IMG/VR virus record: IMGVR_UViG_3300050581_000228
Direction: 5' to 3' (one strand)
Length of the DNA stretch: 22,155 bases
Source of the DNA: a virus
Lineage: Duplodnaviria; Heunggongvirae; Uroviricota; Caudoviricetes
The stretch's first letter is position 1. The number at the start of each line of letters is the position of its first letter. The notes beneath the pieces are model-generated. The model had not been told where the DNA came from. It worked only from the letters and a program-made list of their open reading frames with translations, and did no database searches. A program made the translations under genes and the position numbers. Below, piece by piece: positions 2,117 through 21,622 of the stretch.

Positions 2117-2130
2117 ATGCTGGCGCGACT
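2117..2130 (-). promoter_or_regulatory. Degenerate operator copy in the recombinase 5' leader
   Basis: AGTCGCGCCAGCAT on the minus strand shares the core GCGCCAGCAT with the other copies. Confidence 0.6.
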
Positions 2131-2144
2131 GAACCTCTACCTAT

Positions 2145-2173
2145 AGAGTACACCCGCTGCACACGGTTGTCAA
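2145..2173 (-). promoter_or_regulatory. Sigma70-type promoter for the recombinase: TTGACA-17-TACTCT
   Basis: Perfect -35, 17-bp spacer, 42 bp upstream of ATG 2102. Confidence 0.7.
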
Positions 2174-2414
2174 ATGACTTCCTCTGAGAAACCATGCCGG
2201 TTGTGCCGAAAGTAGCGTCCTGAAGGCTGAAAATCGGCCTTCCGAGGGCAAATCCCGGCAGAACGGATTCGTACATCTCACCGACAAGGAGTCAGCGTGA
2301 ACTACCGTCATTGCCCCCGCTTGTGGAGGTCATGGTCGAGGCCGTCAATGGATTCGGCGTTACCTGCGTCGGGTCCGCGACACGTCCGCCGAATGACTCC
2401 CAGAGTGAAGCCGC

Positions 2415-2449
2415 AACGGGCTGTCCGTCCTGCAAACGGGCAGCCCGTT
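2415..2449. other. Intergenic hairpin with CCGT-N7-ACGG apex
   Basis: AACGGGCTG-T-CCGT-cctgcaa-ACGG-G-CAGCCCGTT, just after the stop of 2456-2887. Confidence 0.6.
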
Positions 2450-2455
2450 TATGTT

Positions 2456-2887
2456 TCAGCCATGCCGAAAATTGCCGCGCTGAAAGGCTTCCCAAGGCCA
2501 AGCTGCGTCCTCGTTGGAGGCTGGTTGGCGGGAACGATAGTATTCAAGAGCCGCCTTGGCTGCTTGACGCTTTGTCAGACCGTACTCGCTGGTGTCCGTC
2601 TGGTCGTAGCAAGAGCACTCATGCTTTTGATGGCCCACGCTGCCTGCAACTGATCGAAAGAAGCACTCGTGATGCAGGAGAGCGTTCTGGACCGGGCCAA
2701 TTGGCTCGCCGGGCAGAATCGGCTCGCCGCAGTGTTGGCAAACCGTCCCACCGGCATCCTCGTGAAAGACGTGACACCGGCCGCAGTAGCGATTGTCGAT
2801 GTCGTTGACGTTGAACGAACGCGAGCCGCAGCGATGGCACTGGATGAAAGCGTGCCCGTCCTGGACGCCGATCGTGTAGCTACTCAC
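2456..2887 (-). CDS. Cys/His-rich hypothetical protein, phage-type CxxCG..S.N..D....YCGxCH N-terminus
   Basis: CHRC, CGRCH, CQHC, CSC motifs; GTG start overlaps the upstream stop. Confidence 0.8.
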   Translation of the reverse strand: MSSYTIGVQDGHAFIQCHRCGSRSFNVNDIDNRYCGRCHVFHEDAGGTVCQHCGEPILPGEPIGPVQNALLHHECFFRSVAGSVGHQKHECSCYDQTDTSEYGLTKRQAAKAALEYYRSRQPASNEDAAWPWEAFQRGNFRHG

Positions 2888-3143
2888 CCTTGGTCTCCCA
2901 GTGCCGGCCGAAACACCTGACGCCGCCGGGAAGAAACGACATCAGGGCGATCGCGCGGGCCAAATCGTTGAAAGCCTGGACCGTTTTGCCTTCCTCTTTG
3001 TGCAAGACGTACTCCATCCGTTCAGCGAAACCAGGACTGATCTCGCCGATCATCCCCATTCGCTCATCTTCGGGCAGGCTGCGAAACTGGTGAATCCACA
3101 GCGGCACGGCGGTGTCCAAGCTATCTGTCAATAACGTCATCAT
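2880..3143 (-). CDS. Conserved-type phage hypothetical protein (AVPL...AFN.LA....L.F.PGGV..FG.H)
   Basis: RBS GAGGAAGG; motif recalled from phage hypotheticals (unverified). Confidence 0.8.
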   Translation of the reverse strand: MMTLLTDSLDTAVPLWIHQFRSLPEDERMGMIGEISPGFAERMEYVLHKEEGKTVQAFNDLARAIALMSFLPGGVRCFGRHWETKGE

Positions 3144-3195
3144 CAACCTTCCTCACTATGCCCTGCTGTCGAGCAATCACCGACCTCGGTGTCGA

Positions 3196-3495
3196 TCAGT
3201 ATCCTCGCTTTTCGATCAGGTCCATCGCTTGATTGAGCGTGTTCTTGGGCTTGATTTCGTCCAACTTCTTCGTCGCCGACGTGAACGGCTCCACGCTGAT
3301 TCTCAGTGGATCGCAGGGAATCCTCGCCGCAATGATCTGTCGCATCAGCCTGGCGATCTCGTGATCGTCGTAGGTCAACGGACCATCGGCCGTGCCAAGC
3401 CACGTATTCGTCTCCGTGTCGAGCAGACCGAAGCGTTTTGGCTGCTCAAGCGTCCCCGGCATCAGGTCTTCTCGGCCCAGAAGTGCTTCGCTCAT
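3196..3495 (-). CDS. Hypothetical protein, about 99 aa (MSEALLGREDL...)
   Basis: In-frame ATG at 3495 avoids overlap with 3546-3794; protein-like composition. Confidence 0.7.
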   Translation of the reverse strand: MSEALLGREDLMPGTLEQPKRFGLLDTETNTWLGTADGPLTYDDHEIARLMRQIIAARIPCDPLRISVEPFTSATKKLDEIKPKNTLNQAMDLIEKRGY

Positions 3496-3531
3496 CAGGC
3501 AGCCTCGTGGTTGATCCCGAGAACCATCCTC

Positions 3532-3580
3532 TGGGAATTGCCGCGTCAGACCTTCTCTCTGTTCCGCCCCAAAAAACTGC
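3532..3580. repeat. 49-bp imperfect direct repeat, copy 1
   Basis: 40/49 identical to 4371-4419; first 18 bp (TGGGAATTGCCGCGTCAG) exact. Confidence 0.85.
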
Positions 3581-3794
3581 GACGGACTTGGCAGGGTGCC
3601 CGACACTCGACCAAGGCGTCGAAGTTGCTCACCGCCCCGCCTTCGTGATTGAGGTTGATGGGCAGAACCTTCAACTTCGACCAGGCTTCGTCGTCCATGA
3701 TCTCCTGGAGGCCGTTGCCCAACATCACGTCACGCTCTCCGACGATGATCCCGTAGTACCCGTCGCCCGTCTGCACCAAGTCGCCGACTCTCAT
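3546..3794 (-). CDS. Hypothetical protein, 82 aa (MRVGDLVQ..., SH3/KOW-like start)
   Basis: Strong RBS GAGGAGGGAG; ATGA overlap with 3791-4009. Confidence 0.7.
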   Translation of the reverse strand: MRVGDLVQTGDGYYGIIVGERDVMLGNGLQEIMDDEAWSKLKVLPINLNHEGGAVSNFDALVECRAPCQVRRSFLGRNREKV

Positions 3795-4009
3795 ACTCCC
3801 TCCTCGACGCCCGGATCGTCCACCACCCAACCACGATTGGCGATGAGGAGCCGTTTGACCCTGATGTTCCTGGCCTGGAAATACCGATGACCACGGAGGC
3901 CGTAGCACTCGTAGACGCCACGGTATCGCGTCGTCTTGATCCGCGCCCGACCGAGGATTCGGTCAGGGTAGGCTGTGGCGGGTGTTCGCCAGGTCGTCAG
4001 GGTGAGCAT
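3791..4009 (-). CDS. Hypothetical basic protein, 72 aa
   Basis: RBS GAGGGAG; first gene after the promoter at 4037-4065. Confidence 0.7.
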   Translation of the reverse strand: MLTLTTWRTPATAYPDRILGRARIKTTRYRGVYECYGLRGHRYFQARNIRVKRLLIANRGWVVDDPGVEEGV

Positions 4010-4036
4010 GTCTCCCTCGAATCAGCAAAAATGCTG

Positions 4037-4074
4037 ATTCTACCCTTGTGCTGGCGCAACGTCAAGTTTAGTAT
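4037..4074. promoter_or_regulatory. Overlapping divergent promoters sharing one operator (4048-4062): leftward TTGACG-17-TAGAAT (4065-4037), rightward TTGTGC-17-TAGTAT (4046-4074)
   Basis: Both have 17-bp spacers; a small hairpin ATCAGCA-aaaa-TGCTGAT (4021-4038) sits at the leftward start. Confidence 0.7.
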
Positions 4075-4080
4075 GACGGC

Positions 4081-4302
4081 ATGAACGGCCTCGATCTCTA
4101 TGTCGTCTACCGGAACCCAAGCGACTTTCCCGGCCAGTACGTCGTTCGCCGGCAAGTGGCTGGGCCGGGCGTGATCTTCAAGGATGCCCGGCCGCTTGCC
4201 GTTGGCAACCTGGCGGCGGTGCGGGCCGCGCTGCCGACCGGGCTGGTCCGGCTCGATCGTGATCCGAACGACGACCCGTGCATCTTCGAGGTCTGGGTGT
4301 GA
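4081..4302 (+). CDS. Conserved-type phage hypothetical protein (Y.NP.DFP..YVVRR...LP.GL....R...DDP.I.E.W); probably leaderless
   Basis: Motif recalled from phage hypotheticals; no SD; ATG 6 nt after the -10 box. Confidence 0.8.
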   Translation: MNGLDLYVVYRNPSDFPGQYVVRRQVAGPGVIFKDARPLAVGNLAAVRAALPTGLVRLDRDPNDDPCIFEVWV

Positions 4303-4370
4303 GCCAGGCACGCATCCTTGCGTCAGGGAGGACGAATCAAGGCAGCACTGCATCCTGTGAGGCTGTCCCC

Positions 4371-4419
4371 TGGGAATTGCCGCGTCAGTCCCTCTTCATG
4401 TGCCGGCCAAGAAAACTGC
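4371..4419. repeat. 49-bp imperfect direct repeat, copy 2
   Basis: See 3532-3580. Confidence 0.85.
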
Positions 4420-4492
4420 TGTTGTGTGACTGACGCGGCGAACCTCGACGCGGACCCAGGGGACGCTCGATAGGGCCGCGCGGCCCTCCGGC

Positions 4493-4512
4493 CCGCACAA
4501 TCCCTACAATCG
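4493..4512. repeat. Left arm of a long-range inverted repeat
   Basis: Reverse complement CGATTGTAGGGATTGTGCGG matches 9440-9459 at 19/20. Confidence 0.75.
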
Positions 4513-4931
4513 CTACATTTGACCCCACCCGGATGTCCGCTACATCAGATTCGATAGAAGCGCTGCAACCGTTACTCAGAGTTGAGGTTGCGCTAGCTTT
4601 GTTGTGCATCGGTGCTGCCAGTACCTCACCCCGCAAACCTTTCCCGCCTTGCCCCGCCTGACTCTTGCTGGCATGGTGCGAAGTAGCTTTGCTGGCAACG
4701 GGTTAGCTTCTCTTGTGGTTGCGGAGACTTCCCCGCCTTTGCTTCCCGCCTTGCTGCCCCGTTGCCAGATTGGCCCATAGGCCGATATGCCGATACCCTT
4801 TGCCCCGCCTTGCTTTGCGAAGACGAGGGGCGGGGACCGTCGATCCAGGGTGGGATTGCAGGGGTGGAAGCGGAGGTATTGGACCCTCCGCCGGCTCTTC
4901 TTGCTCCGAGAGTAAGGGTCGAATCGACGCG

Positions 4932-4985
4932 GCGCGGTTAGATGTCAAACTCTAACCGCGCGCGGGGCGCGTCTAACCGCGCGCG
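4932..4985. repeat. TCTAACCGCGC triad: inverted pair (4932-4942/4951-4961, 8-nt spacer) plus a direct copy (4972-4982)
   Basis: Read directly; the two direct copies share TCTAACCGCGCGCG. Confidence 0.85.
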
Positions 4986-5001
4986 TTACTTGCCGCCCTA
5001 G

Positions 5002-5088
5002 CCCTACTTTAGTTAATAGTTATTTTCTATTACTACTACTACCACTACATCAGCAAAATAGAGAGTAAAACATATAGGTAAAGTAGGG
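5002..5088. other. AT-rich core (about 26% GC over 5005-5085) bounded by a 10-bp inverted repeat CCCTACTTTA/TAAAGTAGGG; candidate origin/terminus element
   Basis: Hand count of 21 G+C in 81 nt within a GC-rich window; non-coding; TAC tandem repeats. Confidence 0.55.
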
Positions 5089-5191
5089 GGCACACTCCGA
5101 TTAACTCGTCTCCCTTGCTGCCCGTTCCAACTCTGCCCCTTCCTTGCTGCCCGCTACGTCGAACCCTTGCGGTCGATAGCCCCCCTCTTCT

Positions 5192-5206
5192 ATGCTGGCG
5201 CAACTC
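5192..5206 (-). promoter_or_regulatory. Operator copy without an obvious promoter
   Basis: ATGCTGGCGCAACTC (13/15), inverted relative to the copy at 5267-5281, 60 bp away. Confidence 0.65.
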
Positions 5207-5263
5207 CGCCATTACAATCGGCCTAGCGGGATCGCCCTAGTCTCGAATTCGCGGGTTTTCTAG

Positions 5264-5292
5264 TTGACGTTGCGCCAGCATCGACGTATCAT
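5264..5292 (+). promoter_or_regulatory. Operator-containing promoter TTGACG-17-TATCAT driving the plus-strand block
   Basis: TTGACGTTGCGCCAGCATCGACGTATCAT; operator at 5267-5281. Confidence 0.8.
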
Positions 5293-5313
5293 TTAGGTAG
5301 AAGGGAAACAAAC

Positions 5314-5478
5314 GTGGAATACGCGAACCGCCTTATCATCGAAACCGCCCGCAAGACCGTGGAGGTTTGCTTGCGGCACCCTTTGACCCTTGCGGAAGTC
5401 TATTACCATTTCGTGGCGCGCGGCAAACGCCCCGCTATGGCTTCTCTTTCGGCAGGGGTGGCGCGCGTTACCTTCTGA
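5314..5478 (+). CDS. Hypothetical protein, 54 aa (MEYANRLIIETARK...)
   Basis: GTG start with AAGGGA RBS, first ORF after the promoter; below the ORF-track cutoff. Confidence 0.6.
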   Translation: MEYANRLIIETARKTVEVCLRHPLTLAEVYYHFVARGKRPAMASLSAGVARVTF

Positions 5479-5505
5479 CACCACTAGCACCCGGAGACCG
5501 CAACC

Positions 5506-5823
5506 ATGATTAAATGTCTCTTGCTTCTGCCGACAAACTACAATGACGGGTCTCCCGTCGAATCGGGCAAGGTAGACTCTTGCCTTGACCGTGTGGATTC
5601 TCTCATCGGCGGCCATACCGTAGACGGCCTATGCGAAGGGGTCTACCGTATGGCCGATGGTTCCTACGCAAGGGACCGAAACCTAAAGGTTTGGGCTTGC
5701 GTCGATGAATCCGCGCTCCCCGCCCTGCGCAGACTGGCGGGAGACTTCGCGGTCGAATTGGGCCAAGAGTCTATCTATTTCGAGCAAACCGCTACCACGG
5801 TCGAATTCGTCAAGGGGCAATGA
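5506..5823 (+). CDS. Hypothetical protein, possibly PII-like/DUF3574-like fold
   Basis: LLP..YNDG...GG.T....G.Y...DG....D...LA......L.QE.IY pattern (recalled, unverified); RBS GGAGACCGCAACC. Confidence 0.8.
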   Translation: MIKCLLLLPTNYNDGSPVESGKVDSCLDRVDSLIGGHTVDGLCEGVYRMADGSYARDRNLKVWACVDESALPALRRLAGDFAVELGQESIYFEQTATTVEFVKGQ

Positions 5824-5830
5824 CAACCAC

Positions 5831-5888
5831 GGGCAGGGATTGCCCGTTTCCATCCCGTCAAGTAAACGGGGCGGAAACCGACAATCCC
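5831..5888 (+). repeat. Intergenic hairpin unit 1
   Basis: GGGCAGGGATTGCCCG start; GGGATTG/CAATCCC base; CCCGT-caagtaa-ACGGG apex. Confidence 0.8.
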
Positions 5889-5906
5889 GCAACGGAGACA
5901 ACCACC

Positions 5907-6107
5907 ATGAAAACCTTCGCCGTAGCTTGCTGCCTTGACGGGGTGTTTTTCGTTTGGAATTGGGATGATTGCGGGTGGGTTTCGGTTTGCGAGAATTGGG
6001 CCGAAACCCTGCCCCGCGCTTCCCGTATGCCGCTAGGCAAGGCGCAAACCTTGCTGGCGCGCCTTGCCCGTCAATTCCCTTGCTGCCCCTCTTTCCTGAT
6101 TGCATAG
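5907..6107 (+). CDS. Hypothetical protein, 66 aa
   Basis: RBS GGAGACAACCACC; ATG at 5907. Confidence 0.7.
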   Translation: MKTFAVACCLDGVFFVWNWDDCGWVSVCENWAETLPRASRMPLGKAQTLLARLARQFPCCPSFLIA

Positions 6108-6116
6108 GGAGCAACC

Positions 6117-6308
6117 ATGTACCGCGCTATCCTGATTCTCTTACTACTGACAACCCCCGCGCTTGCCGACAACCCGCCCCGCTATCACAAGGGCGGGGCA
6201 ACGGTTGCCCGGTTTCACGCAAGCAACCCGAAACCCGTCAAGCAACCGAAACCGAAACCGTCAACCGACCATATCCACTACGTTATCCGATCTTACCACG
6301 TGAAGTAG
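6117..6308 (+). CDS. Small secreted protein, signal peptide followed by DNPPRYH
   Basis: MYRAILILLLLTTPALA-D; paralogous to 9087-9398; RBS GGGAG. Confidence 0.75.
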   Translation: MYRAILILLLLTTPALADNPPRYHKGGATVARFHASNPKPVKQPKPKPSTDHIHYVIRSYHVK

Positions 6309-6347
6309 CCCGCAAGGGATAACCTTTTCACCATTGGAGCAATCACG

Positions 6348-6593
6348 ATGAAGAAGCAACCCCTATTCGACGTGTCTCGTTTCAACCACCTTGCCGACAA
6401 GTACAACATCCCTTGGATTGATCGGATTCCCCTCATCGAAACCGTTTGCTGGGGTAGCAAGGGATGGATTGACGCCGAACTAGCCCGCAAACTGCGCGGC
6501 CGATGGAATGGTTTTCGGCGCAACGGCCAGTACGGGGCGTTTATGGGCGAAGTTATGCGGGCAATCAATTCCCGCGCTTGCGCGGCCGCATAG
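6348..6593 (+). CDS. Hypothetical protein, 81 aa
   Basis: RBS GGAG; collinear. Confidence 0.75.
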   Translation: MKKQPLFDVSRFNHLADKYNIPWIDRIPLIETVCWGSKGWIDAELARKLRGRWNGFRRNGQYGAFMGEVMRAINSRACAAA

Positions 6594-6600
6594 CGGCAAC

Positions 6601-6655
6601 GGGCATGGATTGCCCGATTAGCTCCCGTTGCACGGGGAGCTAATCGGCTAATCCA
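6601..6655 (+). repeat. Intergenic hairpin unit 2
   Basis: TGGATT/AATCCA base (compensatory change); 13-bp perfect stem CCGATTAGCTCCC/GGGAGCTAATCGG. Confidence 0.85.
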
Positions 6656-6689
6656 CAACCACGTTTCACAACAGAGAGGAGCTAGTTCT

Positions 6690-6890
6690 ATGTGCCGCAA
6701 CCGATCCGGCGTAGAGGCAAACCTGCGCGTTTACTACCCGGATGTTTCCATTGTGGACAACGGGGACCACAAGAGCGCGGAATTCGGGGGTGAATTGCCC
6801 CGTAGTTTCGTCGAATCCCTACGGGCAGTCGGGGCAGAGGTTCTGCGCTATTCTCATCGGGGCGTAGTCTCTACCGTTGTCAACTACTGA
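6690..6890 (+). CDS. Hypothetical protein, 66 aa
   Basis: RBS GAGAGGAG; follows hairpin unit 2. Confidence 0.75.
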   Translation: MCRNRSGVEANLRVYYPDVSIVDNGDHKSAEFGGELPRSFVESLRAVGAEVLRYSHRGVVSTVVNY

Positions 6891-6925
6891 CCCGCAACCA
6901 GAAGAGCAACCGGGAGACCGCAACC

Positions 6926-7105
6926 ATGACCCGTAAGTATCTGAGAGTGATTGCCGGCGCGATTGCCGGCATTGCCGACGATTGCGCCCGCTATGCGGCC
7001 GCGCTCGCGCTTGCCGATGAATTGCGCTACCACAACCCGCGCTTTGACCGTTGCCGTTTTCTACTTGCTTGCAAGGCGGTAGACGTAGACGACCCGCGCC
7101 GCTAG
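6926..7105 (+). CDS. Small phage-type protein, 59 aa, NPRFDR.RFL.AC motif
   Basis: MTRKYLRVIAGAIAG...LADELRYHNPRFDRCRFLLACK; RBS GGAGACCGCAACC; missed by the ORF track. Confidence 0.8.
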   Translation: MTRKYLRVIAGAIAGIADDCARYAAALALADELRYHNPRFDRCRFLLACKAVDVDDPRR

Positions 7106-7114
7106 GCGCGGATA

Positions 7115-7172
7115 GGGCAGGGATTGCCCGATTAGCTCCCGTTCACTTGACGGAAGCTAATCAGACAATCCC
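7115..7172 (+). repeat. Intergenic hairpin unit 3
   Basis: GGGATTG/CAATCCC base, GATTAGCT/AGCTAATC stem, CCGT-tcacttg-ACGG apex. Confidence 0.85.
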
Positions 7173-7185
7173 GGAGACCGCAACC

Positions 7186-7356
7186 ATGATTAGACCTATC
7201 ACGATTCGGGGAAACCTAGCCCTATGGTATTCGCCCGATGAACGGGGCTATTACTGGCAAGACGGGCGGGGGTGGGGCAATAGGGTTAGCAGACTCTATC
7301 GGACGAAAGAGGGAGCTATTCGCGCGTATCGCAAGGGGACAATCAGACTTCGCTAG
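7186..7356 (+). CDS. Hypothetical protein, 56 aa
   Basis: RBS GGAGACCGCAACC at 7173-7185. Confidence 0.75.
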   Translation: MIRPITIRGNLALWYSPDERGYYWQDGRGWGNRVSRLYRTKEGAIRAYRKGTIRLR

Positions 7357-7365
7357 GGAGCTATC

Positions 7366-7584: not shown

Positions 7585-7600
7585 CAAGGGAACAACCACC

Positions 7601-8230: not shown

Positions 8231-8237
8231 ACGGGCG

Positions 8238-10317: not shown

Positions 10318-10986
10318 CTACATCTCACTCTGGCAGTAGGCTTCCCGCACTTCCTCGATTGCGTCGTCGGTCACAACCGACTTGACGCCTTCCACTTTCA
10401 TCCCGCCGTTGCCCTCAGCGGGCAGGAAGCCCTCGCGGCAAGTGTGTTCAAGTATCCGGTCGATCTCGTGAACGCCGAAGTAGCAGACTTGTTCGGTATC
10501 GCGGTCGCCGTCGCGGATAAGCTCGTCAAGCTCTTCGCCTTCTTCGTCGGTCAACTCGCGGCTCGTCTCCCATTGCGTGCCAAGAAAGGTAAGCTCATAC
10601 GTTGCCTCAAAGCTGCAACAATGCACGTGCCGCCGTCGATCAAAGACGTACACGCCGTAAATGCGGCTTGTCCGGTCCAGGATGGTCGGGTCAACCCAGT
10701 GCTCGCGTTCGTCGATCTTCACAATCCACAAGTCGGGCAGTAGCTCGACGCGCTCGCCCTCTTCCAAGCCCTCATACTCGCCGTCGTATCGTCGGTAGAT
10801 TCGCGCGGCGTCGTCTTGCTCCCATTCTGCCTTGGTGTACAACCACCCGTTGTTGTCGTCGCTGTCCAGATGCAACAGCGCAACCTTGTCGGGGTCCACG
10901 TGGGTGCCTTGGCTGTCGGTCCATTCCGCCTCTGGCGTAATGAGAACGGCGGTCGGCTTGAACGGCGCTCTTTCGGTCGTGGTCAT
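10318..10986 (-). CDS. Acidic hypothetical protein, 222 aa
   Basis: Directly downstream of the promoter at 11013-11041; ATGA coupling. Confidence 0.8.
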   Translation of the reverse strand: MTTTERAPFKPTAVLITPEAEWTDSQGTHVDPDKVALLHLDSDDNNGWLYTKAEWEQDDAARIYRRYDGEYEGLEEGERVELLPDLWIVKIDEREHWVDPTILDRTSRIYGVYVFDRRRHVHCCSFEATYELTFLGTQWETSRELTDEEGEELDELIRDGDRDTEQVCYFGVHEIDRILEHTCREGFLPAEGNGGMKVEGVKSVVTDDAIEEVREAYCQSEM

Positions 10987-11246
10987 GTTGGCTCGATTTG
11001 GTTATTCTCCAGATTATGTAACAATGCTGGCACAACGTCCAGTTGCTCCAGCGCGATCTTCAGCGCTTCCAAGCGGTCGCCGGCCACGCGGAACTCCACG
11101 TGGTAGTGTCGTCCTCTTCCGAAACTGTCGATCCCGTAAATTCTCCACGTCCCTGGTAATCCCGCCAGTTCGGCTTTCATCGCCTCTTGGCTGAAGTCGC
11201 GCGGCCGGTTGAATCGTCGCGTCAAGACTGATTCGCTGTCGTGCAT
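10983..11246 (-). CDS. Hypothetical protein, about 87 aa (MHDSESVLTRRFN...)
   Basis: ATG at 11246 within track ORF 10983-11522; its 3' end contains the next promoter. Confidence 0.6.
   Translation of the reverse strand: MHDSESVLTRRFNRPRDFSQEAMKAELAGLPGTWRIYGIDSFGRGRHYHVEFRVAGDRLEALKIALEQLDVVPALLHNLENNQIEPT
11013..11041 (-). promoter_or_regulatory. Operator-containing promoter TGGACG-17-CATAAT
   Basis: Operator variant ACGTTGTGCCAGCAT at 11024-11038. Confidence 0.7.
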
Positions 11247-12792: not shown

Positions 12793-13062
12793 TCAATTGT
12801 AAACCGCTTCTAGCTTGGCTTCCACCCGGTCCCGCTCCCGTGCGTTTAGCGGTCGGATAAGGTTCGCCTCTTCATCGCCGACAAACAGGCTGATAAAGTC
12901 GTACCCGTAGCAATGTTCGGTTTCGACCCCAACACCGATCCCGCTCTCGACCCAAGCCGTTACTTCGCCGACTCGCCACTCGTTTAGAGTTTCGATCACG
13001 GTGTCCAGGTCATCGACGGCCTGATAGTCGCCCTGGTCCCCGCAGCGTATCCAGTAAATCAT
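12793..13062 (-). CDS. Hypothetical protein, 89 aa
   Basis: ATGA overlap with the upstream gene. Confidence 0.8.
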   Translation of the reverse strand: MIYWIRCGDQGDYQAVDDLDTVIETLNEWRVGEVTAWVESGIGVGVETEHCYGYDFISLFVGDEEANLIRPLNARERDRVEAKLEAVYN

Positions 13063-13457
13063 GTCCCTGCCCTCACAATCTCTTCCACGCGCTCGGCAAA
13101 GGCAAGTTGGGCTTCAGTCACGTCGATCCCTTCCGTCTGCCGCTTCCGAATGGTCCGGGCGGTGCGCCGATCCCATTGCGTTGCGTATCCGCGCGCCAAG
13201 CTGGCTTCTTTCGCCTTCTGCCAGTCGGCTGCGATTCGTTGCTCGGTTGCGACCATGCCTTTCCGCATGGCGGCAACCTCTTGATGGGCCGGTCTCCGCA
13301 ACCGGGCGGCCGTTCGGATTCGCACGGCCCGGCCGGTTTGCTTGTTGACGGCTTCCCACCCGCCGTAGGGCGACTGGCGGAGAATCCTCACCACGGCAAT
13401 CTTGCCGGAAACCTTGGCAACGTACTCGCGGCCGATCTCGACTTCGCGCTTCAACAT
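13059..13457 (-). CDS. Hypothetical protein with N-terminal ..V.IG..Y.AKVSG....VRI......GGW.A.N..TGR.VRI..A.RLR domain
   Basis: Domain recalled from planctomycete MGE proteins, where it is often fused to a winged HTH (unverified); start moved to ATG 13457 (RBS AGAGGGA). Confidence 0.8.
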   Translation of the reverse strand: MLKREVEIGREYVAKVSGKIAVVRILRQSPYGGWEAVNKQTGRAVRIRTAARLRRPAHQEVAAMRKGMVATEQRIAADWQKAKEASLARGYATQWDRRTARTIRKRQTEGIDVTEAQLAFAERVEEIVRAGT

Positions 13458-13474: not shown

Positions 13475-13503
13475 ATTATGCCACAATGCTGGCGCAACGT
13501 CAA
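13475..13503 (-). promoter_or_regulatory. Operator-containing promoter TTGACG-17-CATAAT
   Basis: Exact operator at 13486-13500. Confidence 0.8.
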
Positions 13504-14115: not shown

Positions 14116-14646
14116 CTATTCTGCCAGTCGCCATGCGCGGCGAACTTGGTTGTCGTTGTCCGGGTCGCGCACAACCCGAAAGTCCTCCCCGTGGATGTCT
14201 TCCACAAGCCACGCGCCGATGCCCTCTTCGTGTACGGCGTCGATGGTCGTATGCCGTTCCCCGCCCAGCCCCAGGTAGTCCTCTCGTTGCGGCGGCCGGA
14301 TCGGGTCCGTTAGCTCCGCTTGCTGTTCAAGCTCGGCTTGGCTCATAAACCACCATCCGCCGGTCTTCGGGCAACTCACGATGTACGGATTATCGGCCGG
14401 CTGTCGGATTTCCGAAACCACAACGTAGCTTCCGCGCGGCGTCACGCGCTCGTTGTCGTTGTCGTCATGGTCGATCTGTAGCGTCAACAGGCGGAAGACG
14501 TCTCCCACCTTGTACCGTTGGCGTCGGGTCCGGCCGCACTTGCAAATGTCGATATGCCGGCAATGCGTTTCTCCGCAAGGGCAATCCCACGTCGCGCCAG
14601 CGCCTTTCGTTACCCCGTGTTGGCAAGGTGAACAAAGCATTGTCAT
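14116..14646 (-). CDS. Hypothetical protein, about 176 aa, Cys/His-rich N-terminus
   Basis: RBS AAGGAGGG; the track start at 14727 would run through the promoter and terminator. Confidence 0.8.
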   Translation of the reverse strand: MTMLCSPCQHGVTKGAGATWDCPCGETHCRHIDICKCGRTRRQRYKVGDVFRLLTLQIDHDDNDNERVTPRGSYVVVSEIRQPADNPYIVSCPKTGGWWFMSQAELEQQAELTDPIRPPQREDYLGLGGERHTTIDAVHEEGIGAWLVEDIHGEDFRVVRDPDNDNQVRRAWRLAE

Positions 14647-14661: not shown

Positions 14662-14690
14662 AGCATACCACGATGCTGGCGCAACGTCAA
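14662..14690 (-). promoter_or_regulatory. Operator-containing promoter TTGACG-17-TATGCT
   Basis: Exact operator at 14673-14687. Confidence 0.8.
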
Positions 14691-14691
14691 C

Positions 14692-14723
14692 AAAATAATA
14701 GAAAAGCCCGTCGGGTACGGGCT
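14692..14723 (-). terminator. Intrinsic terminator immediately upstream of the promoter
   Basis: AGCCCGT/ACGGGCT stem, then TTTCTATTATTTT on the minus strand. Confidence 0.7.
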
Positions 14724-15991: not shown

Positions 15992-15995
15992 CGCT

Positions 15996-16253: not shown

Positions 16254-16259
16254 ATCTCT

Positions 16260-16288
16260 AGCATATCACGTTGCGCCAGCATTGTCCA
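16260..16288 (-). promoter_or_regulatory. Promoter TGGACA-17-TATGCT with the operator in inverted orientation
   Basis: Spacer reads ATGCTGGCGCAACGTGA; operator at 16268-16282. Confidence 0.75.
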
Positions 16289-16289
16289 T

Positions 16290-16333
16290 TAAAATCGGCC
16301 CGCTTTCCGGTGACTAGGCGAAAAGCGGGCCGG
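16290..16333 (-). terminator. Putative terminator immediately upstream of the promoter
   Basis: GGCCCGCTTT/AAAGCGGGCC stem (16297-16331), then ATTTT on the minus strand. Confidence 0.55.
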
Positions 16334-16385
16334 TCATAAGGCCGGTATCGGCTCGGGAGACCATGCGGCCGTTACCGGCCGGCGG

Positions 16386-16718
16386 TTAGTCTCCCGTCTC
16401 TTGCCTTGCTCCAAGCTCCCCGGTCACTTTTAACCGATGTTGCGCGTCATTTGGCCAACCATGTTTGTCCAATTCGGACAACATCGTGGCCACGGGGAAC
16501 CGCACTCGCACGACGATACTGCCTTGCTGCTCCAAGTCAGCTTGCAAGGCGGCAATCGCGGCAAGATAGTCGCCGTAGGTTTTCATCCGGGGCGTGTCGG
16601 GCATGGCTTGGTGCGCGGCAAGGTCGCCCTCGGGAAACTCCCAAAGGTAGACCCGCCTCGCGTTGCTCGGTATGCCGCGAGACGCTCCCACTATCTTCTG
16701 CACGTAGTCGTCACTCAC
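16386..16718 (-). CDS. Hypothetical protein, about 110 aa (MSDDYVQK...)
   Basis: GTG at 16718 overlaps the upstream stop; TY.DYL......DLE..G..V.RV pattern. Confidence 0.75.
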   Translation of the reverse strand: MSDDYVQKIVGASRGIPSNARRVYLWEFPEGDLAAHQAMPDTPRMKTYGDYLAAIAALQADLEQQGSIVVRVRFPVATMLSELDKHGWPNDAQHRLKVTGELGARQETGD

Positions 16719-17718
16719 TCTGCACCTGTTGCTTCTCGGCAAGTTGTTTCATCGCGTCCAGAAACGGCGCGAGGTATTCCAGTTGTTGCCCCTTGAACTC
16801 CAATCGCTCAAAGTCGGAGTAAGACGCGATAGGCGCGTCGATCTCTTGCCCGTGGGCCTTCGCCATGTCCTGCAACCCGCCGAATGCGGCGGCAATCATC
16901 GTGTTCCACTCGCCGACTTCTTCGGCCAGCGCCTTGACGCTGTACTTCCCCTCGTGCCACGTATAAACGCGCTTCTCTGCCCACGGGTCATCCGTGTAGT
17001 AGGAACGGCCGTACTTTCCTTCGTCATCCACGGAGACCTTCATCGTCGGCAACTCCGCGATTCGATCCAACAGGTGAATCACGCACAGGTGGCAGCGGAT
17101 GAAGTTGGGCACACCCCCGGCCGCCGGTTCGCTGGCGTATTGCGTCTTGCAAAAGGCTGAGTAGCGCCAGCCAGAGGAAAGCCGGGTCTTGATATTCCGC
17201 TTCTCCTCGTGGAACTCCGAAAGGTGCGGCCCGCTGTTGCCGGCGCGAATCTGCTCCTCTTGCCACTTGTGGAACTTCCGCCAGTTGAATTCCCATCGCG
17301 TCATGCCGTCCTTCGTAATGGTGGAAATGAAGCGGTCGTCGTCATGGGGCGTGTAGTCGGTTTCGATTTCCGCCGGGAACCGCGCCAAGCCGAACGTAGC
17401 CCATTCCGATCCGGGGCCGGGGATGGTGTCGAAGGAGAAGATTTCCAACGGTTGCACGCGCACTCGGGCACCTTGCTTGCGGTGCCAGGGAACGTCTACG
17501 CTGATGGACCCCTCCAAGACGGCGCTGAATGCGCGGTCATTGCCGCGCAGACTTTCAAGCGGTCGCTGGCATATCTTCGGTCCAAGGTAATGCACCTTGT
17601 CGTCCACATGCTCGAAAGGCAAGTCAAGGGCAAGCTGGCGCATGCGCTCGACCAGCGTCTTGGCCCGCTCGGCGGTGCGCGTTCTGCTGTCCAGACCGTA
17701 GTGAATTGTCAGGCCCAT
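16711..17718 (-). CDS. Conserved-type hypothetical protein, 335 aa (MGLTIHY...FCKTQYAS...NF.RCHL.VI.LLD...DEG.Y)
   Basis: Long ORF with AGAGG RBS; family recalled from MGE hypotheticals; function unknown. Confidence 0.85.
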   Translation of the reverse strand: MGLTIHYGLDSRTRTAERAKTLVERMRQLALDLPFEHVDDKVHYLGPKICQRPLESLRGNDRAFSAVLEGSISVDVPWHRKQGARVRVQPLEIFSFDTIPGPGSEWATFGLARFPAEIETDYTPHDDDRFISTITKDGMTRWEFNWRKFHKWQEEQIRAGNSGPHLSEFHEEKRNIKTRLSSGWRYSAFCKTQYASEPAAGGVPNFIRCHLCVIHLLDRIAELPTMKVSVDDEGKYGRSYYTDDPWAEKRVYTWHEGKYSVKALAEEVGEWNTMIAAAFGGLQDMAKAHGQEIDAPIASYSDFERLEFKGQQLEYLAPFLDAMKQLAEKQQVQSE

Positions 17719-17879
17719 GTTTTACCTCTCGCTTCTTCTTCCAATTCGTCCAATGGTATCGCGTCTTCCGCTTCGGCCGCCACGCTCACAAGACGATTCC
17801 TTGCCGCAAGGTACTCCGGCGTCGGGCACCTATGCGGTTGATCGTCGATCAGGTGTTTGCACTTCGGGCAGATGGTCAT
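17709..17879 (-). CDS. Small protein, 56 aa (MTICPKCKHLIDDQPHRCP...)
   Basis: ATG 3 nt after the upstream stop; CPKC...H.C; fills the gap; missed by the ORF track. Confidence 0.65.
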   Translation of the reverse strand: MTICPKCKHLIDDQPHRCPTPEYLAARNRLVSVAAEAEDAIPLDELEEEARGKTWA

Positions 17880-17882
17880 GGT

Positions 17883-18155
17883 TTAGTAGTCGTCGGGCAA
17901 CAGGATGGTGGTGGTCGAGCGGTCGGCTTCCGTGATGATCCAGATGTCTTCCCCTTTCAGCGTCTTGTAGGCGGAATGAATCCGTCCCTCCTCTTTCAGT
18001 GACTCTTCGTTGAGTTGCTTGTCCTCTGCGCACATCAGGCCCCAGTCCCCTTGGGCGTGTTTCGTCAGAAAGAACTCCGGCTTTTGGCTGGCGCGGTCCA
18101 GCGCTTCTAGTGCGCCGGGCGTGCCGACAATCTGTCCAAGCGAGAATTTGTTCAT
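17883..18155 (-). CDS. 'Plasmid-related protein' family (often mislabelled type I RM subunit M)
   Basis: FSLGQIVGTPGALEAL...H..GDWG.....D...NE..L....RI.SAY......IWIITEADRSTTTILLP.DY. Confidence 0.85.
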   Translation of the reverse strand: MNKFSLGQIVGTPGALEALDRASQKPEFFLTKHAQGDWGLMCAEDKQLNEESLKEEGRIHSAYKTLKGEDIWIITEADRSTTTILLPDDY

Positions 18156-18364
18156 GCTTCATCTACTGACGTTACGTCCACTCCGAGTATGCTCATCGAG
18201 CAATCGTCATCAGCTTCGTCGAGGCAATGCTCAAAGCCATTGTCGCACGCGGATTGCAGCGCGTTGCTTACAGCTTGTTGGGCGGCCTGCTTGATAATCT
18301 TGACCGGATGCGCCGCGTCGGCGTCAATTCGCAATGTCACTTTGATTTCCGCTTCGTATTTCAT
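18152..18364 (-). CDS. Hypothetical protein, 70 aa
   Basis: RBS AAGGTG; ATGA overlaps at both ends. Confidence 0.75.
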   Translation of the reverse strand: MKYEAEIKVTLRIDADAAHPVKIIKQAAQQAVSNALQSACDNGFEHCLDEADDDCSMSILGVDVTSVDEA

Positions 18365-18570
18365 CGTCTCACCTTTCGGAAGTCGGAAGGGTCAACCGAT
18401 CCCTGGACAACCGGGTTCGCGTTCCACGCGGCCCGTGGCGAACGGTAGCCCAGTCGGCGGTGCAACCCGTAGGTTTCGGCGTACCGTTTGAATTCGTCGA
18501 AGTCGGCATAGTTCTCGCGCAGTCGGCATTGCCACCCGCGAAGGCCACACTGGCAAGTCACTTGGCGCAT
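18361..18570 (-). CDS. Phage-type hypothetical protein (Y..FDEF..Y...YG...RLGY.S...AW..NP.VQGSV.P.D)
   Basis: Motif recalled from phage hypotheticals. Confidence 0.8.
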   Translation of the reverse strand: MRQVTCQCGLRGWQCRLRENYADFDEFKRYAETYGLHRRLGYRSPRAAWNANPVVQGSVDPSDFRKVRR

Positions 18571-18779
18571 GATACATGCTCCCGAAGAATCGCCAGATTT
18601 TCTGCCGACTCAGCGGCCCATTCGCGGATTGTGTCCAGCGCGAAGTCAACGATAGACCAATCACGCGCGTGAAGTCTCGCCTCCTCGACGTAATCATCGC
18701 TGTACCAATCGCAATGCTCCTCCGCAAAGTCTTGAGGAGAGTGCAATTGGTTTACAAGTGTTTCGATTTCGTTATTCAT
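18558..18779 (-). CDS. Acidic hypothetical protein, 73 aa
   Basis: RBS AGAGG. Confidence 0.75.
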   Translation of the reverse strand: MNNEIETLVNQLHSPQDFAEEHCDWYSDDYVEEARLHARDWSIVDFALDTIREWAAESAENLAILREHVSCAK

Positions 18780-18785
18780 GGTCCT

Positions 18786-19316
18786 CTAGCCCTTAATCAG
18801 TCCCTCCCGTATCAGCTTGCGCAACAAGCGGTATGCCTCTTGCGCGGTCGCCACGGTCCAGAAGCCGAAGGTCGCATTTCGCCTGCCCGTGTACTCGCCA
18901 AGGTCCGAAGGATCGCGCAGAAACTCCGGGTAGACGAGCACATTGTAGTCCAGCGGCGTCTGTTCGGTCCAGCACTCCTCCCATTCCAGATTCGGCAGTC
19001 TGCGCCAGGTGCCGTCTTTCCAAGCCCGATCGCGCCGTCGCTTCACGGCCGGCGGGATGATAAGGCCCGCGCCCAGTCCGATCTCCGGCCTGTCGAATTC
19101 GATTCTCTCCTTCGCGCCGGGGTAGATGAACGCCCCACCGCTAAGCCGGTGCGAGTTGAACCGCACTTGCACATCGCAAGCGAAGTGCCGCCCCAACCAC
19201 TCGGCAAAGCGGGCCACGGCCCGGTCAAGGCGCTTCGTCTTGCCATTGTATCCGCCGCCCGGCAATGGCCCTGCCCACGGCACTCCGGGACTGATTCCAA
19301 CAGAACGGGTAATCAT
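18786..19316 (-). CDS. Hypothetical protein, 176 aa
   Basis: RBS AGGTGG; collinear. Confidence 0.75.
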   Translation of the reverse strand: MITRSVGISPGVPWAGPLPGGGYNGKTKRLDRAVARFAEWLGRHFACDVQVRFNSHRLSGGAFIYPGAKERIEFDRPEIGLGAGLIIPPAVKRRRDRAWKDGTWRRLPNLEWEECWTEQTPLDYNVLVYPEFLRDPSDLGEYTGRRNATFGFWTVATAQEAYRLLRKLIREGLIKG

Positions 19317-19323
19317 GGTCCAC

Positions 19324-19464
19324 CTACAAGGTATGTGTGATTGCTCGGATTTCGCCCCGTAGCTCTTCGCCCAGCGCGAACAACTCGCGGCTCTCCTCGT
19401 CGGTCAATTCATCCGGCTCACAGTCGGCCAGTTCCAACAGTCGGTCGGCGTTTTCTTCTCTCAT
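19324..19464 (-). CDS. Small acidic protein, 46 aa (MREENADRLLELADC...)
   Basis: ATGA overlap with 19461-20042; C-terminal part of track ORF 19324-20421. Confidence 0.65.
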   Translation of the reverse strand: MREENADRLLELADCEPDELTDEESRELFALGEELRGEIRAITHTL

Positions 19465-20042
19465 GCTCTGCGCTCCACAATAACTCGACCGTCGCGCCAC
19501 CGCACCGACATGCCCGGCAGTAGCTCGATGTACTGATTGCCAGGGCCAATGCGAATCATCGGCCGGTCGCCTTGCATTTCGTTGTAGGCATAGATTTCGC
19601 CCTCTTCCATGCCGATGCTCGCAGTGGTCTTGAACCGGCTCCCATCGGCGTTGTGAAGGAACACGTCGAATTCCGGCTTGCCGAAGTTTTCCTTTCGGCA
19701 GTGCTCGTGGACCGCGCGCTCGACTTGCACAATAAGCCACGCCAATTCGGTCACGGCAAGCCGGTCGCGCTCGCCGCCGAAGAGGGCTTTGATCCGGGCG
19801 ATTCCCTTGGGGGCGTCCAACAGCCAGTAGTGCTCTTCGCCGACTTCCACGTGCATGTTGCCGAAGCATTCCCCGTTGCTGGCGCGAAGAGTAGTGCCGT
19901 AGCTCACGCGGAAGCCGGTGCCCGTTACGGCCTTGTCGGCGTACCGGCATTCGACCCCGGCTTTGCGAAGCTCGCGCAAGGCGGCCTGTAGGCCGCGATA
20001 CTTCGCCTTGCGCTCTTGCTCTTTGCTGATTCCAGCACCCAT
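19461..20042 (-). CDS. Hypothetical protein, 193 aa
   Basis: RBS AGGGGA; collinear. Confidence 0.75.
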   Translation of the reverse strand: MGAGISKEQERKAKYRGLQAALRELRKAGVECRYADKAVTGTGFRVSYGTTLRASNGECFGNMHVEVGEEHYWLLDAPKGIARIKALFGGERDRLAVTELAWLIVQVERAVHEHCRKENFGKPEFDVFLHNADGSRFKTTASIGMEEGEIYAYNEMQGDRPMIRIGPGNQYIELLPGMSVRWRDGRVIVERRA

Positions 20043-20051
20043 GATGATCCC

Positions 20052-20258
20052 CTAGCAAGGTCCGACGGTGAAGCCGGCCGCCGCGATTCCTTCCAATATG
20101 TTGTCTGCCATGCGGCCGTCGATGTTCAAGGTTGCATTCTGCCACTGCCACGGTTCGGCTTGGCAATTCTCGGTAAGCCACTCGCGGGCGACTTGGTTCA
20201 TCGGCGTAATGCCGATGATGCTGCCCATGCGGTCCACGATGAAGTCGTTTTGTGTCAT
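20052..20258 (-). CDS. Conserved-type MGE hypothetical protein (DF.....GSI..I.P....A.EW...N.......W....L.I..R....I..G)
   Basis: RBS AGGAG; recalled motif. Confidence 0.8.
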   Translation of the reverse strand: MTQNDFIVDRMGSIIGITPMNQVAREWLTENCQAEPWQWQNATLNIDGRMADNILEGIAAAGFTVGPC

Positions 20259-20267
20259 GTTGGACTC

Positions 20268-20462
20268 CTACGCAATGATTACCTGTAGTAGCTCCGGTTC
20301 CACGTCCGGGTAGGCTCTCAGGGCCTTGCTCTGGGCGTGCTTGAATGAGACAGCCCGCACGGTTCCGACTGGCTCGTGAATCGGCCACGTGCAACGGGCG
20401 ACGGTTCCTTTCGGATACCACCGCACCGCCGTTGCAATCTGGCGCACCACAACAAAGGTCAT
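20268..20462 (-). CDS. Hypothetical protein, 64 aa (MTFVVVRQ...)
   Basis: ATGA overlap with 20459-20743; RBS AGGGGA. Confidence 0.7.
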   Translation of the reverse strand: MTFVVVRQIATAVRWYPKGTVARCTWPIHEPVGTVRAVSFKHAQSKALRAYPDVEPELLQVIIA

Positions 20463-20743
20463 GGCTTGTTCCCCTGTTTGGCCGGTTTCCTCCATCCGAA
20501 CATTCTCAGCCCGGCCTTGTTCAAGTCGGGGAAGTGAACGGTCCAAGTATACTCCCCGCCATTGTTTTTCGGCTTGGCGGCAAGTGCCAAGGTGTCCCAT
20601 CGCGGCGGAACGTCAGGGTGGGCTTTGCAGTATTCACACTGGCAACCGCCGGTGACAGGGGCCGCAAGCTCGGCCGGGATGGGAACAAACAAGGTGCTCC
20701 CATCGTCACTGATGAAGATCGGTTGTCCGTTCATCGTTTCCAT
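20459..20743 (-). CDS. Hypothetical protein, 94 aa, CQCEYC motif
   Basis: RBS AAGGGA; follows the hairpin at 20767-20797. Confidence 0.75.
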   Translation of the reverse strand: METMNGQPIFISDDGSTLFVPIPAELAAPVTGGCQCEYCKAHPDVPPRWDTLALAAKPKNNGGEYTWTVHFPDLNKAGLRMFGWRKPAKQGNKP

Positions 20744-20766
20744 CGGTCATTTCCCTTGCTCTACCG

Positions 20767-20797
20767 CCCCTGCCCGCCGTCAATAGGCGGGCAGGGG
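20767..20797. other. GC-rich intergenic hairpin without a U-tract
   Basis: 12-bp perfect stem CCCCTGCCCGCC/GGCGGGCAGGGG, 7-nt loop. Confidence 0.65.
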
Positions 20798-20811
20798 CCG
20801 CTAGGTTGTCG

Positions 20812-21543
20812 TCACACGGCCAGCCCGCAATGGGCGTCAAGCAACCCCTGCAAGGTCATGGTCCGCTTCACGGCGGCCATCGGGGCGGTGCCCTTCATCA
20901 CTTCGGTGAAGTCGTTGAAGAGCGACCATACGTTCCGCGGCGCGAAGTCCTCATGCGCCGGCTTCCGCCACTCGCCGACCACCTTGGGGATTGCCTCTCC
21001 ACTGACCACGTGGGCCAGCAAGGCGCGAATCATTAGGTCGTGCGCTTCCACGTCCGAAAGCTCGCGGGCCTTATAGGCTTGAAACCTTGCCGCTTGCTTC
21101 ACGCGAAGGTCGGCCAGCTTCCCCACGGCGGCGTAGATCAGCCGGTCCAGGTCGCGGCCGATGAAGCGGGTATGCTTCCGGGCCACAACCACGTCTCCCG
21201 AAAACGAAAGGTTGTCGCAAACGAAGACGTGATTCCCCAGGGACAGCCCGGCGGGAAAGGTCTTGTCGTGCGAATTGCGAAGGCCAACTACCGTGTTGCC
21301 GCCGTCGCTGTTGTCGCCAAGGTGAAGCAAGCCGAAGTAGCGTGCTCCGTCGTGGTAGAGCGCGTGCTCTTCTTTCACGATGTTCGCGCCGCTGGCGACC
21401 AGCGCGCCCTTGACCGAATCCACAAGGGCGTCGTGCGCCACCGGGGTCCAGGTCGGGGTTGCGTCGGGCAGAGTGACGTTGCGAAGCTGTTCCATTTCTA
21501 TCACGTGTGCGCCGCTGTGCAAGCAAAGGTTTCCGTTAGTCAT
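20812..21543 (-). CDS. DUF932-family phage/plasmid protein, about 243 aa
   Basis: P..H..LV..V...G.RYFGLL...VVGLRNSHDK.F.AGL.LG..VFVCDNL.F.G...RKHT signature; start moved to ATG 21543 (GGAGTTCGCAACC). Confidence 0.85.
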   Translation of the reverse strand: MTNGNLCLHSGAHVIEMEQLRNVTLPDATPTWTPVAHDALVDSVKGALVASGANIVKEEHALYHDGARYFGLLHLGDNSDGGNTVVGLRNSHDKTFPAGLSLGNHVFVCDNLSFSGDVVVARKHTRFIGRDLDRLIYAAVGKLADLRVKQAARFQAYKARELSDVEAHDLMIRALLAHVVSGEAIPKVVGEWRKPAHEDFAPRNVWSLFNDFTEVMKGTAPMAAVKRTMTLQGLLDAHCGLAV

Positions 21544-21593
21544 GGTTGCGAACTCCAAAGTTGTGAAAAGGTGACAAGTTGCTCATCTACTCT

Positions 21594-21622
21594 ATCATAC
21601 CTCGATGCTGGCGCAACGTCAA
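21594..21622 (-). promoter_or_regulatory. Operator-containing promoter TTGACG-17-TATGAT
   Basis: Exact operator at 21605-21619; heads the DUF932 operon. Confidence 0.8.

Follow-up and report, generated by a model that had tools for sequence, protein, structure and literature searches.

We examined a 22,155-nucleotide (nt) stretch of viral DNA (IMG/VR record IMGVR_UViG_3300050581_000228, hereafter the window) that holds a family of predicted early promoters sharing an operator-like site in the spacer between the -35 and -10 boxes. Judged from its sequence, the source element is a large uncultured tailed phage with a genome of ~146-195 kb rather than a plasmid or conjugative element, and the window is most of its early region. 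The phage is probably temperate, as far as its sequence allows, and probably belongs to hosts of the Planctomycetota. The ~50 open reading frames (ORFs) of the window gave just two Pfam or PHROG matches, to a serine recombinase and, weakly, to DUF932, and the many small ORFans are a pattern typical of a phage early region. No Rfam families were found in the window or in L004 (a stretch of the relative G001, below), and a megablast search with the window as query matched no phage or plasmid record. Three genes are needed for what follows.

1194-2102, minus strand: serine recombinase of the resolvase/invertase type (Resolvase N-terminal domain, E 2.8e-19; DNA invertase by PHROG).
20812-21543, minus strand: DUF932-like protein, encoded by the most highly conserved gene in this region and the query used for relatives.
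21961-22155, minus strand: 64-amino-acid (aa) ORF, a predicted winged helix and candidate regulator, first gene after an operator-bearing promoter that lies ~45 bp past the window end (in contig L191).

Through the DUF932-like protein we reached two complete relatives in IMG/VR, G001 (148,650 bp) and G002 (145,969 bp), both of which are syntenic with the window and whose proteins are ~50-85% identical to each other; genes in the relatives were called with a simple in-house caller. What looks like a direct terminal repeat in G001 is an assembly overlap of 127 bp. Two further sources came from the exact look-up of one window protein, namely L191, a contig that agrees with the window wherever the two overlap and runs 10 kb beyond the window's right end, and L193-L196, a closer relative with the same gene order as the window. 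A sigma-70-family protein is encoded by the phages (L191 3880-4686), G001 and G002 encode a tyrosine recombinase, and no tRNA was found at the two junctions checked. In L197, a 203-kb contig of a Thermoguttaceae metagenome-assembled genome, the promoter array of a related phage starts beside ordinary bacterial genes, and a homologue of a 127-aa protein that is the first gene in relatives sits among phage genes inside a 957-kb contig. Because of these two placements and the tyrosine recombinase, lysogeny is plausible.

The initial annotation had described a 15-bp pseudo-palindromic motif at ten positions, seven of them inside strong promoters heading operons of small genes, and this description stood up to independent scans. 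When up to three mismatches are allowed, the 15-mer ACGTTGCGCCAGCAT has 11 matches in the window against 0.91 expected, a number reached by 0 of 100 shuffled sequences. Ten of these are the copies originally listed, each located as claimed (2117, 4048, 4585, 5192, 5267, 11024, 13486, 14673, 16268 and 21605), and the eleventh, at 14589 with three mismatches and within a gene, is probably a chance match. The 17-mer TTGACGTTGCGCCAGCA, said to be identical in five promoters, is indeed exact in five of the seven copies found at two mismatches or fewer, where none is expected. A separate scan for the sigma-70 consensus called all seven promoters, and the motif is present in each of the four window sites that it scored best. 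The predicted promoters fit the consensus of a housekeeping sigma factor (TTGAC, 17 bp, TAnnnT, often with an extended -10), and six copies read in their own orientation as TTGACG-17-TAnnnT, followed 20-45 nt on by a ribosome-binding site and start codon. The predicted promoters and the other copies of the site are listed below, with the coordinates of the 18-bp unit defined in the next paragraph.

21594-21622, minus strand: early promoter TTGACG-17-TATGAT, operator 21602-21619, heading the DUF932-like operon; orthologous to G001 23481 and G002 125879.
16260-16288, minus strand: early promoter TGGACA-17-TATGCT, operator 16268-16285, inverted and with the register unchanged from that of the forward copies; orthologous, with shared upstream sequence, to G001 16611 and G002 132194, and kept in L193.
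14662-14690, minus strand: early promoter TTGACG-17-TATGCT, operator 14670-14687, with a terminator hairpin (14705-14723) before the promoter; orthologous to G001 14645 and G002 134277.
13475-13503, minus strand: early promoter TTGACG-17-CATAAT, operator 13483-13500, heading the gene of a 132-aa basic protein; orthologous to G001 10998.
11013-11041, minus strand: early promoter TGGACG-17-CATAAT, operator 11021-11038 with one mismatch, overlapping the 3' end of ORF 10983-11246; orthologous to G001 8913 and G002 137506.
5264-5292, plus strand: early promoter TTGACG-17-TATCAT, operator 5267-5284, heading a plus-strand block of small genes.
4037-4065, minus strand: early promoter TTGACG-17-TAGAAT, operator 4045-4062 with a diverged right arm, heading ORF 3791-4009 and downstream genes.
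5189-5206, minus strand: operator copy with no recognizable -35 or -10, facing the 5267 copy 75 bp away.
2114-2131, minus strand: operator copy directly adjoining the serine recombinase ribosome-binding site; same arrangement at the orthologous recombinase gene, G001 138462 and G002 10661.
4585-4602, plus strand: degenerate copy with three mismatches, behind TTGAGG and with no good -10, probably a decayed promoter.

With three copies just outside the window added to the ten within it, this compares with 15 operator-like copies in G001 and 11 in G002. The copy at 5189-5206 lies in a context (...CAGCATAGA...) that is the same as that of a promoter-less copy at position 54 of G002, a likeness of sequence only, and the copy at 2114-2131 suggests that the serine recombinase gene is itself a member of the regulon.

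Conservation within these promoters is not confined to the -35 and -10 boxes. Among the six forward promoters, pairwise identity is 0.94 at positions 1-18, 0.45 at positions 19-23, 0.68 in the -10 hexamer and 0.25-0.28 in the flanks, in keeping with the earlier remark that the 3' part of the spacer varies freely. The first 12 bases of the spacer are as well conserved as the -35 box and better conserved than the -10 box (1.89 bits per position compared with 1.39 bits); base-specific reading of this part of the spacer by housekeeping sigma factors is not known. The dyad proposed in the annotation, AYGYTG-N3-CARCRT, is weak in its 15-bp form (4 of 6 positions), and a register of 18 bp fits better. 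The functional unit thus redrawn runs from position 4 of the -35 hexamer to 2 nt before the -10 box and has the form ACGTTG-CGCCAG-CATnnn. The exact 18-mer was absent from the viral contigs searched, and a search with a degenerate promoter pattern found multiple copies in just the two known relatives.

A site of this kind might be bound by a protein of the host, for instance a global repressor, nucleoid protein or LexA-like factor, through which the phage couples early transcription to host physiology. This would fit with the fact that no phage regulator has been identified with confidence, and the lineage-specific variants of the site described below could reflect different hosts, the GC content of the three phages being 50%, 56% and 59%. 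Against it, the exact 18-mer gave only single chance matches, never with a -10 box behind them, in 596 Gb of prokaryote genomes and a metagenome collection, a weak test of the idea, and the relatives lack an S24 (LexA/CI-type) protein. We consider control by a host protein very improbable.

The window 15-mer is wholly absent from G001 and G002, in which the same place in the promoter is taken by TTGAC-AATGGG(G/C)-CAGCAT. Read from position 4 of the -35 box, the 18-mer of these two phages is palindromic, ACAATG-N6-CATTGT, and in 15 of the 20 listed copies the arms are perfect. When this palindrome was sought by itself, whether or not a promoter surrounded it, 18 and 21 matches turned up at two arm mismatches or fewer, compared with shuffle means of 3.9 and 5.6; those with zero or one arm mismatch all lie in the early region, and the other matches lie inside genes at chance level. 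In G001 the 14 copies at zero or one arm mismatch, together with a separately found copy in the recombinase leader, make 15 within 39 of 148.6 kb, a clustering for which our own arithmetic gives a chance probability of ~2e-9, and none of the G001 palindromes is near the sigma, ParB-like or integrase genes. Six orthologous promoters of G001 and G002 are 91% identical over a 29-nt core and 43-44% identical in the 40-nt flanks on each side. Because recombination within a genome cannot keep two genomes alike, the core is under purifying selection. The closer relative (L193-L196) likewise keeps the exact 13-mer of the window at every orthologous site.

Across the window phage, G001, G002, the closer relative and the wider lineages compared, the sequence of the site differs between related phages and is uniform within each, all copies in one genome sharing the bases specific to that lineage. 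At least five spacer types were seen among the phages compared. One of these lineages, in L197, has ~10 promoters of the form TTGACTTACGCCAATTTTGTGGTAGAGT, with a small palindrome of its own. Common to all lineages examined are TTGAC, GCCAR 8 nt before the -10 box, TGTGG, TAnnnT and a GAGTA-like start. In a separate observation, two spacer subtypes (TCTGCCAAAT... and TCTCCGAAACACATGG) alternate among the ~14 promoters of a single phage (L198 8159-18494), and these may mark two regulators or two temporal classes.

Repeated promoters of uniform sequence could also arise as mobile cassettes. In T4-type phages, PeSL cassettes consist of a repeated stem-loop, a sigma-70-like early promoter, a Shine-Dalgarno sequence and an ATG, and they lie in ORFan-rich variable regions (PMC4122927, PMC2839356). 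By analogy, the promoters described here would be terminator-promoter-leader modules that are homogenized by recombination and serve as crossover points for ORFans, with a spacer that no dedicated protein reads. Much of the layout agrees with the published cassettes, which have a hairpin, an AT-rich stretch, -35 and -10 boxes, a Shine-Dalgarno sequence and an ATG beside variable ORFans (PMC4122927). A promoter, a short leader and an ATG are present at all copies of the cassette, and a clear upstream hairpin at two of the seven window promoters, with terminator hairpins before those at 14690 and 16288; the window phage, G001 and G002 differ in the ORFans that lie between cassettes, and in the latter two the whole cassette of ~55 nt is uniform down to the ATG. 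In the window phage, however, uniformity is limited to positions 1-18, with variation in the remainder of the spacer and in the -10 box, and the core shared by G001 and G002 despite flanks of 43-44% identity is not explicable by homogenization within a genome. Moreover, the spacer of PeSL cassettes is an N17 with no conserved content and no proposed operator, whereas here it is the best conserved part and also occurs alone. As a sufficient explanation we regard the mobile cassette as quite unlikely, although shuffling of genes and an operator role are compatible, and cassettes could do both.

That the site behaves as a unit apart from the promoter is seen most clearly in copies that depart from the common arrangement. 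The minus-strand copy at 16268 reads TGG-ACAATGCTGGCGCAACGT-GA-TATGCT, so that the 18-mer is inverted and still occupies exactly positions 4-21 of the promoter. A second geometry is found in the relatives, where the inverted centre directly follows the -35 box, 3 bp downstream (G001 391, 858 and 1405; G002 145218 and 145772), and a third in L191, just outside the window, where the site lies just upstream of a -35 box and overlaps it. Copies with no promoter also stand at orthologous places, as in the recombinase leader of all three phages, where the site abuts the ribosome-binding site. Contacts made by sigma factor or polymerase depend on orientation and register, and a protein that simply occupies the promoter depends on neither. 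Because inverted, shifted and promoter-less copies keep the site, and the promoter core is conserved across genomes, the sequence evidence favours a separate DNA-binding protein, most likely a repressor, over a sigma contact or simple duplication of a cassette. The same features (conservation, the relatives, the use of either orientation and the promoter-less copies) bear out the earlier proposal of a dispersed regulon of strong sigma-70-type promoters with a built-in operator-like site.

The departures from the common geometry also bear on the idea that the spacer is a promoter-specificity element, read by the host holoenzyme, by a phage sigma-70-family factor or by a MotA-like appropriator, and marking a temporal class. 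The phages do encode a sigma-70-family protein, all lineages share TGTGG and a GCCAR whose distance to the -10 box is constant, and the weak structural matches found for the 64-aa protein include the sigma-contacting domain of T4 MotA. Yet the -35 and -10 boxes already match the housekeeping consensus at optimal spacing, copies with no -35 or -10 box exist, and the palindromic arms in the relatives and the inverted site would not be tolerated by polymerase contacts. In addition, the sigma gene is flanked by other, AT-rich phage-specific promoters. A role in promoter specificity is therefore decidedly unlikely in our estimation.

Our preferred interpretation, to which we assign a probability of about 60%, is that each early promoter carries an 18-bp site for a phage-encoded DNA-binding protein that would silence them all together. 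From the sites, their geometry, their conservation and their variation between lineages we infer the binding of a protein, the repression it would exert and what that protein may be. The small early genes would be transcribed from a family of strong housekeeping-type promoters, and a phage-encoded sequence-specific protein would bind the 18-bp site between the -35 and -10 boxes and block RNA polymerase at all of these promoters at once. Early genes would then stay silent in a lysogen, or be shut off after a short burst; a lytic burst followed by shut-off fits as well as lysogenic silencing. In a lysogen, a dozen or more near-consensus promoters would need to be kept silent, so that lysogeny would need silencing of this kind. 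The serine recombinase gene would be controlled through the copy beside its ribosome-binding site, and the 64-aa protein, if it is the binder, would regulate its own promoter.

The 64-aa ORF was the best candidate to emerge from a search for the regulator. A back-to-back pair of operator-bearing promoters lies 45 bp past the window, the counterpart of the pair at G001 25145/25161, and one of the two heads ORF 21961-22155. The structural model of the protein (mean pLDDT 84.7, built from 5 sequences) has the order helix, loop, helix, beta-hairpin, helix. Almost all of its structural matches are winged-helix domains of the MarR family (Z 8.1-6.5, a range that the structure-comparison tool rates as common; root mean square deviation 1.9-3.0 Å over 57-64 residues), and Foldseek returned the same families with weak E-values. 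Pfam did not place the protein in the MarR family, giving just HemN_C at E 0.06, and 64 aa are too short for the MarR dimerization helices. The proposal that this protein binds the sites is tentative, and we lean against it.

The statement in the annotation that no recognizable regulator is encoded in the window is correct for Pfam and PHROG families and needs amending for structure prediction, given the predicted winged helix at 21961-22155; with this candidate, the repressor need not be encoded elsewhere in trans, as had been supposed. As to a helix-turn-helix, ribbon-helix-helix or LexA-like gene with the same site upstream, the winged-helix candidate is headed by an operator-bearing promoter, no ribbon-helix-helix family was detected among the window ORFs, and neither the S24 protein mentioned above nor ParA was found. 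HTH_3 gave sub-threshold matches only, outside the early region. In another lineage the first gene encodes an unrelated 127-aa protein with >100 homologues and a confident model, for which the best structural match has a Z of 4.6 and no fold could be clearly assigned; phages with this first gene have at least three spacer types.

Several other candidates were rejected. The ParB-like genes are far from any operator, and no support was found for the 73-aa ORF at 4081-4302. The latter, on the plus strand and divergent from the promoter at 4065, has the highest third-position GC in the window, is 59% conserved in G001 and has no family match. ORF 13059-13457 has a Tudor/SH3-like N terminus, the Cro-like pattern at G001 25628-25855 shows only weak conservation in G002 and resembles no known family or PDB entry, and a 230-aa G001 protein with a faint winged-helix match has no counterpart in the window. 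ORF 3791-4009, which had an AP2-like appearance, is the N terminus of a split methyltransferase-like gene: together with ORF 3546-3794 it corresponds to a single 291-aa ORF of G001 and G002 that has a glycine motif like those of methyltransferases, and the gene is apparently split in the window phage.

A number of observations weigh against silencing by a dedicated phage protein. The GCCAR and TGTGG elements, shared by every lineage, could be read by polymerase instead of a repressor, which is the main reason why we keep promoter specificity under consideration, and the uniformity of the ~55-nt cassette could also be produced by recombination between copies. The site in the window phage is just weakly symmetric, with 4-5 of 6 positions agreeing between its arms, and a symmetric dimer is not obvious. 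Pfam and PHROGs identified no DNA-binding regulator family among the ~50 ORFs of the window and ~30 of G001, and the winged-helix assignment depends on a model from five sequences and on Z values of a common range. Lastly, because phages with the 127-aa first gene have several spacer types, the type of first gene does not map one-to-one onto the type of operator.

Regulation of early promoters by a phage repressor has familiar precedents. Lambdoid phages (lambda, P22 and 434) have dyad sites of 14-18 bp over the -35 and -10 boxes of early promoters, bound by a dimeric repressor and by Cro, and the regulator gene is the first after the promoter. Their operators form two clusters, unlike the 13-15 single sites spread here over 25-40 kb. 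Many operators of the C1 repressor of phage P1 overlap promoters of early functions. In P1, a single C1 repressor serves 22 dispersed sites with a 17-bp consensus (PMC8546580), which resembles the one repressor proposed here for numerous operators dispersed through the genome of a large, probably temperate phage; the operators of P1 lack symmetry and vary in their placement, whereas the present ones keep a fixed register in the spacer of a cassette and are palindromic in the relatives. No C1 homologue turned up, although no search was aimed at one. Cluster A mycobacteriophages carry dozens of short stoperators per genome, with motifs that differ between related phages along with immune specificity (PMC6550527, PMC9283540), and in copy number and in the divergence of the motif the present sites are like those of the L5 gp71 type. 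Stoperators, however, are asymmetric 13-bp sites inside transcription units, oriented with transcription, at which a two-domain monomer binds and elongation is halted, whereas nearly all copies here lie in core promoters, their orientation is not tied to transcription and their arms are palindromic in the relatives.

The initial annotation had drawn its parallels from conjugative plasmids. In the Reg576 (p576) and CUP (ArdK-ArdR, pKM101) systems, dispersed establishment and anti-defence promoters share repressor sites and give a pulse of expression on entry (PMC6294495), and the present system likewise has several dispersed promoters with candidate repressor sites in common. The defining features differ. 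Reg576 is a ribbon-helix-helix protein of a conjugative plasmid that acts on TTATCCC direct repeats, and the site described here has another sequence and symmetry; CUP regions are repeats of >400 bp in the leading regions of conjugative plasmids, compared with a conserved unit of 18-55 bp in a phage whose relatives are complete virus records. Both parallels are thus functional analogies only. Zygotic induction, suggested in the annotation, likewise has the standing of an analogy here, this phage not being a conjugative element.

With many dispersed copies above chance, seven of them between predicted -35 and -10 boxes, and a site that is lineage-specific, the system most likely represents a known type of phage repressor regulon, here in a group of phages that has hardly been studied. 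By analogy, the system would function like the P1 C1 regulon and the cluster A stoperators, and it looks like a PeSL cassette. What sets it apart from all of the systems compared is an operator at a fixed register in every copy of a repeated promoter cassette.

Some further features of these phages deserve mention. Between the sigma-factor gene and the next operon (L191 4700-5020) is a large AT-rich inverted repeat with no operator copy, which resembles a separate class of phage-specific promoter. Beyond the divergent pair at the window end (L191 8964-9932; counterparts G001 25161-25628 and L197 8500-9950), the outward promoter is followed by a predicted transcript led by a hairpin and then by ~1 kb with no called ORF. 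The sequence of the hairpin differs between lineages and its pairing is kept, and the junction between phage and host-like genes in L197 falls in the ORF-less stretch, which may hold an attachment site or a long non-coding RNA. An 88-kb phage contig, G003 (L186-L190), has at 70.6-73.2 kb a DUF932-like gene 81% identical to that of the window and does not share the rest of its early region; it illustrates the movement of a single-gene module from phage to phage along with a promoter, and its two copies of a spacer of its own are uninformative for operator comparison. L191 further encodes a CsrA-like 56-aa protein (6500-6670) and the R subunit of a type I restriction enzyme (HsdR, 1025 aa; 1-1211), both from precomputed Pfam matches. 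By eye, a 313-aa ORF of G001 (26291-27232, equivalent to L004 6291-7232) with an HVGH motif resembles a class I aminoacyl-tRNA synthetase of the Tyr/Trp type. Finally, ~12 tandem copies of a CCGGCC-like hexamer lie between convergent gene blocks at L198 5870-5941.

A broader proposal, which we hold to be unlikely, is that the early promoters of this Planctomycetota phage clade are portable cassettes with a dual purpose, at once a recombination module that swaps ORFans and the operator of an immunity repressor, whose specificities co-evolve into immunity types and whose regulator can be exchanged (the 64-aa winged helix for the unrelated 127-aa protein). Very little work has been done on phages of the Planctomycetota, and genetic tools for their hosts are few. 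In annotation, the early region and operon starts of this phage group can be recognized by the motif with no recourse to homology. If silencing through the 18-bp site is correct, these phages would provide strong, compact promoters for Planctomycetota together with a matching switch, as well as a natural series of operator variants in which to study how immunity specificities diverge, and a mobile promoter cassette and a repressor operator would be one and the same object.

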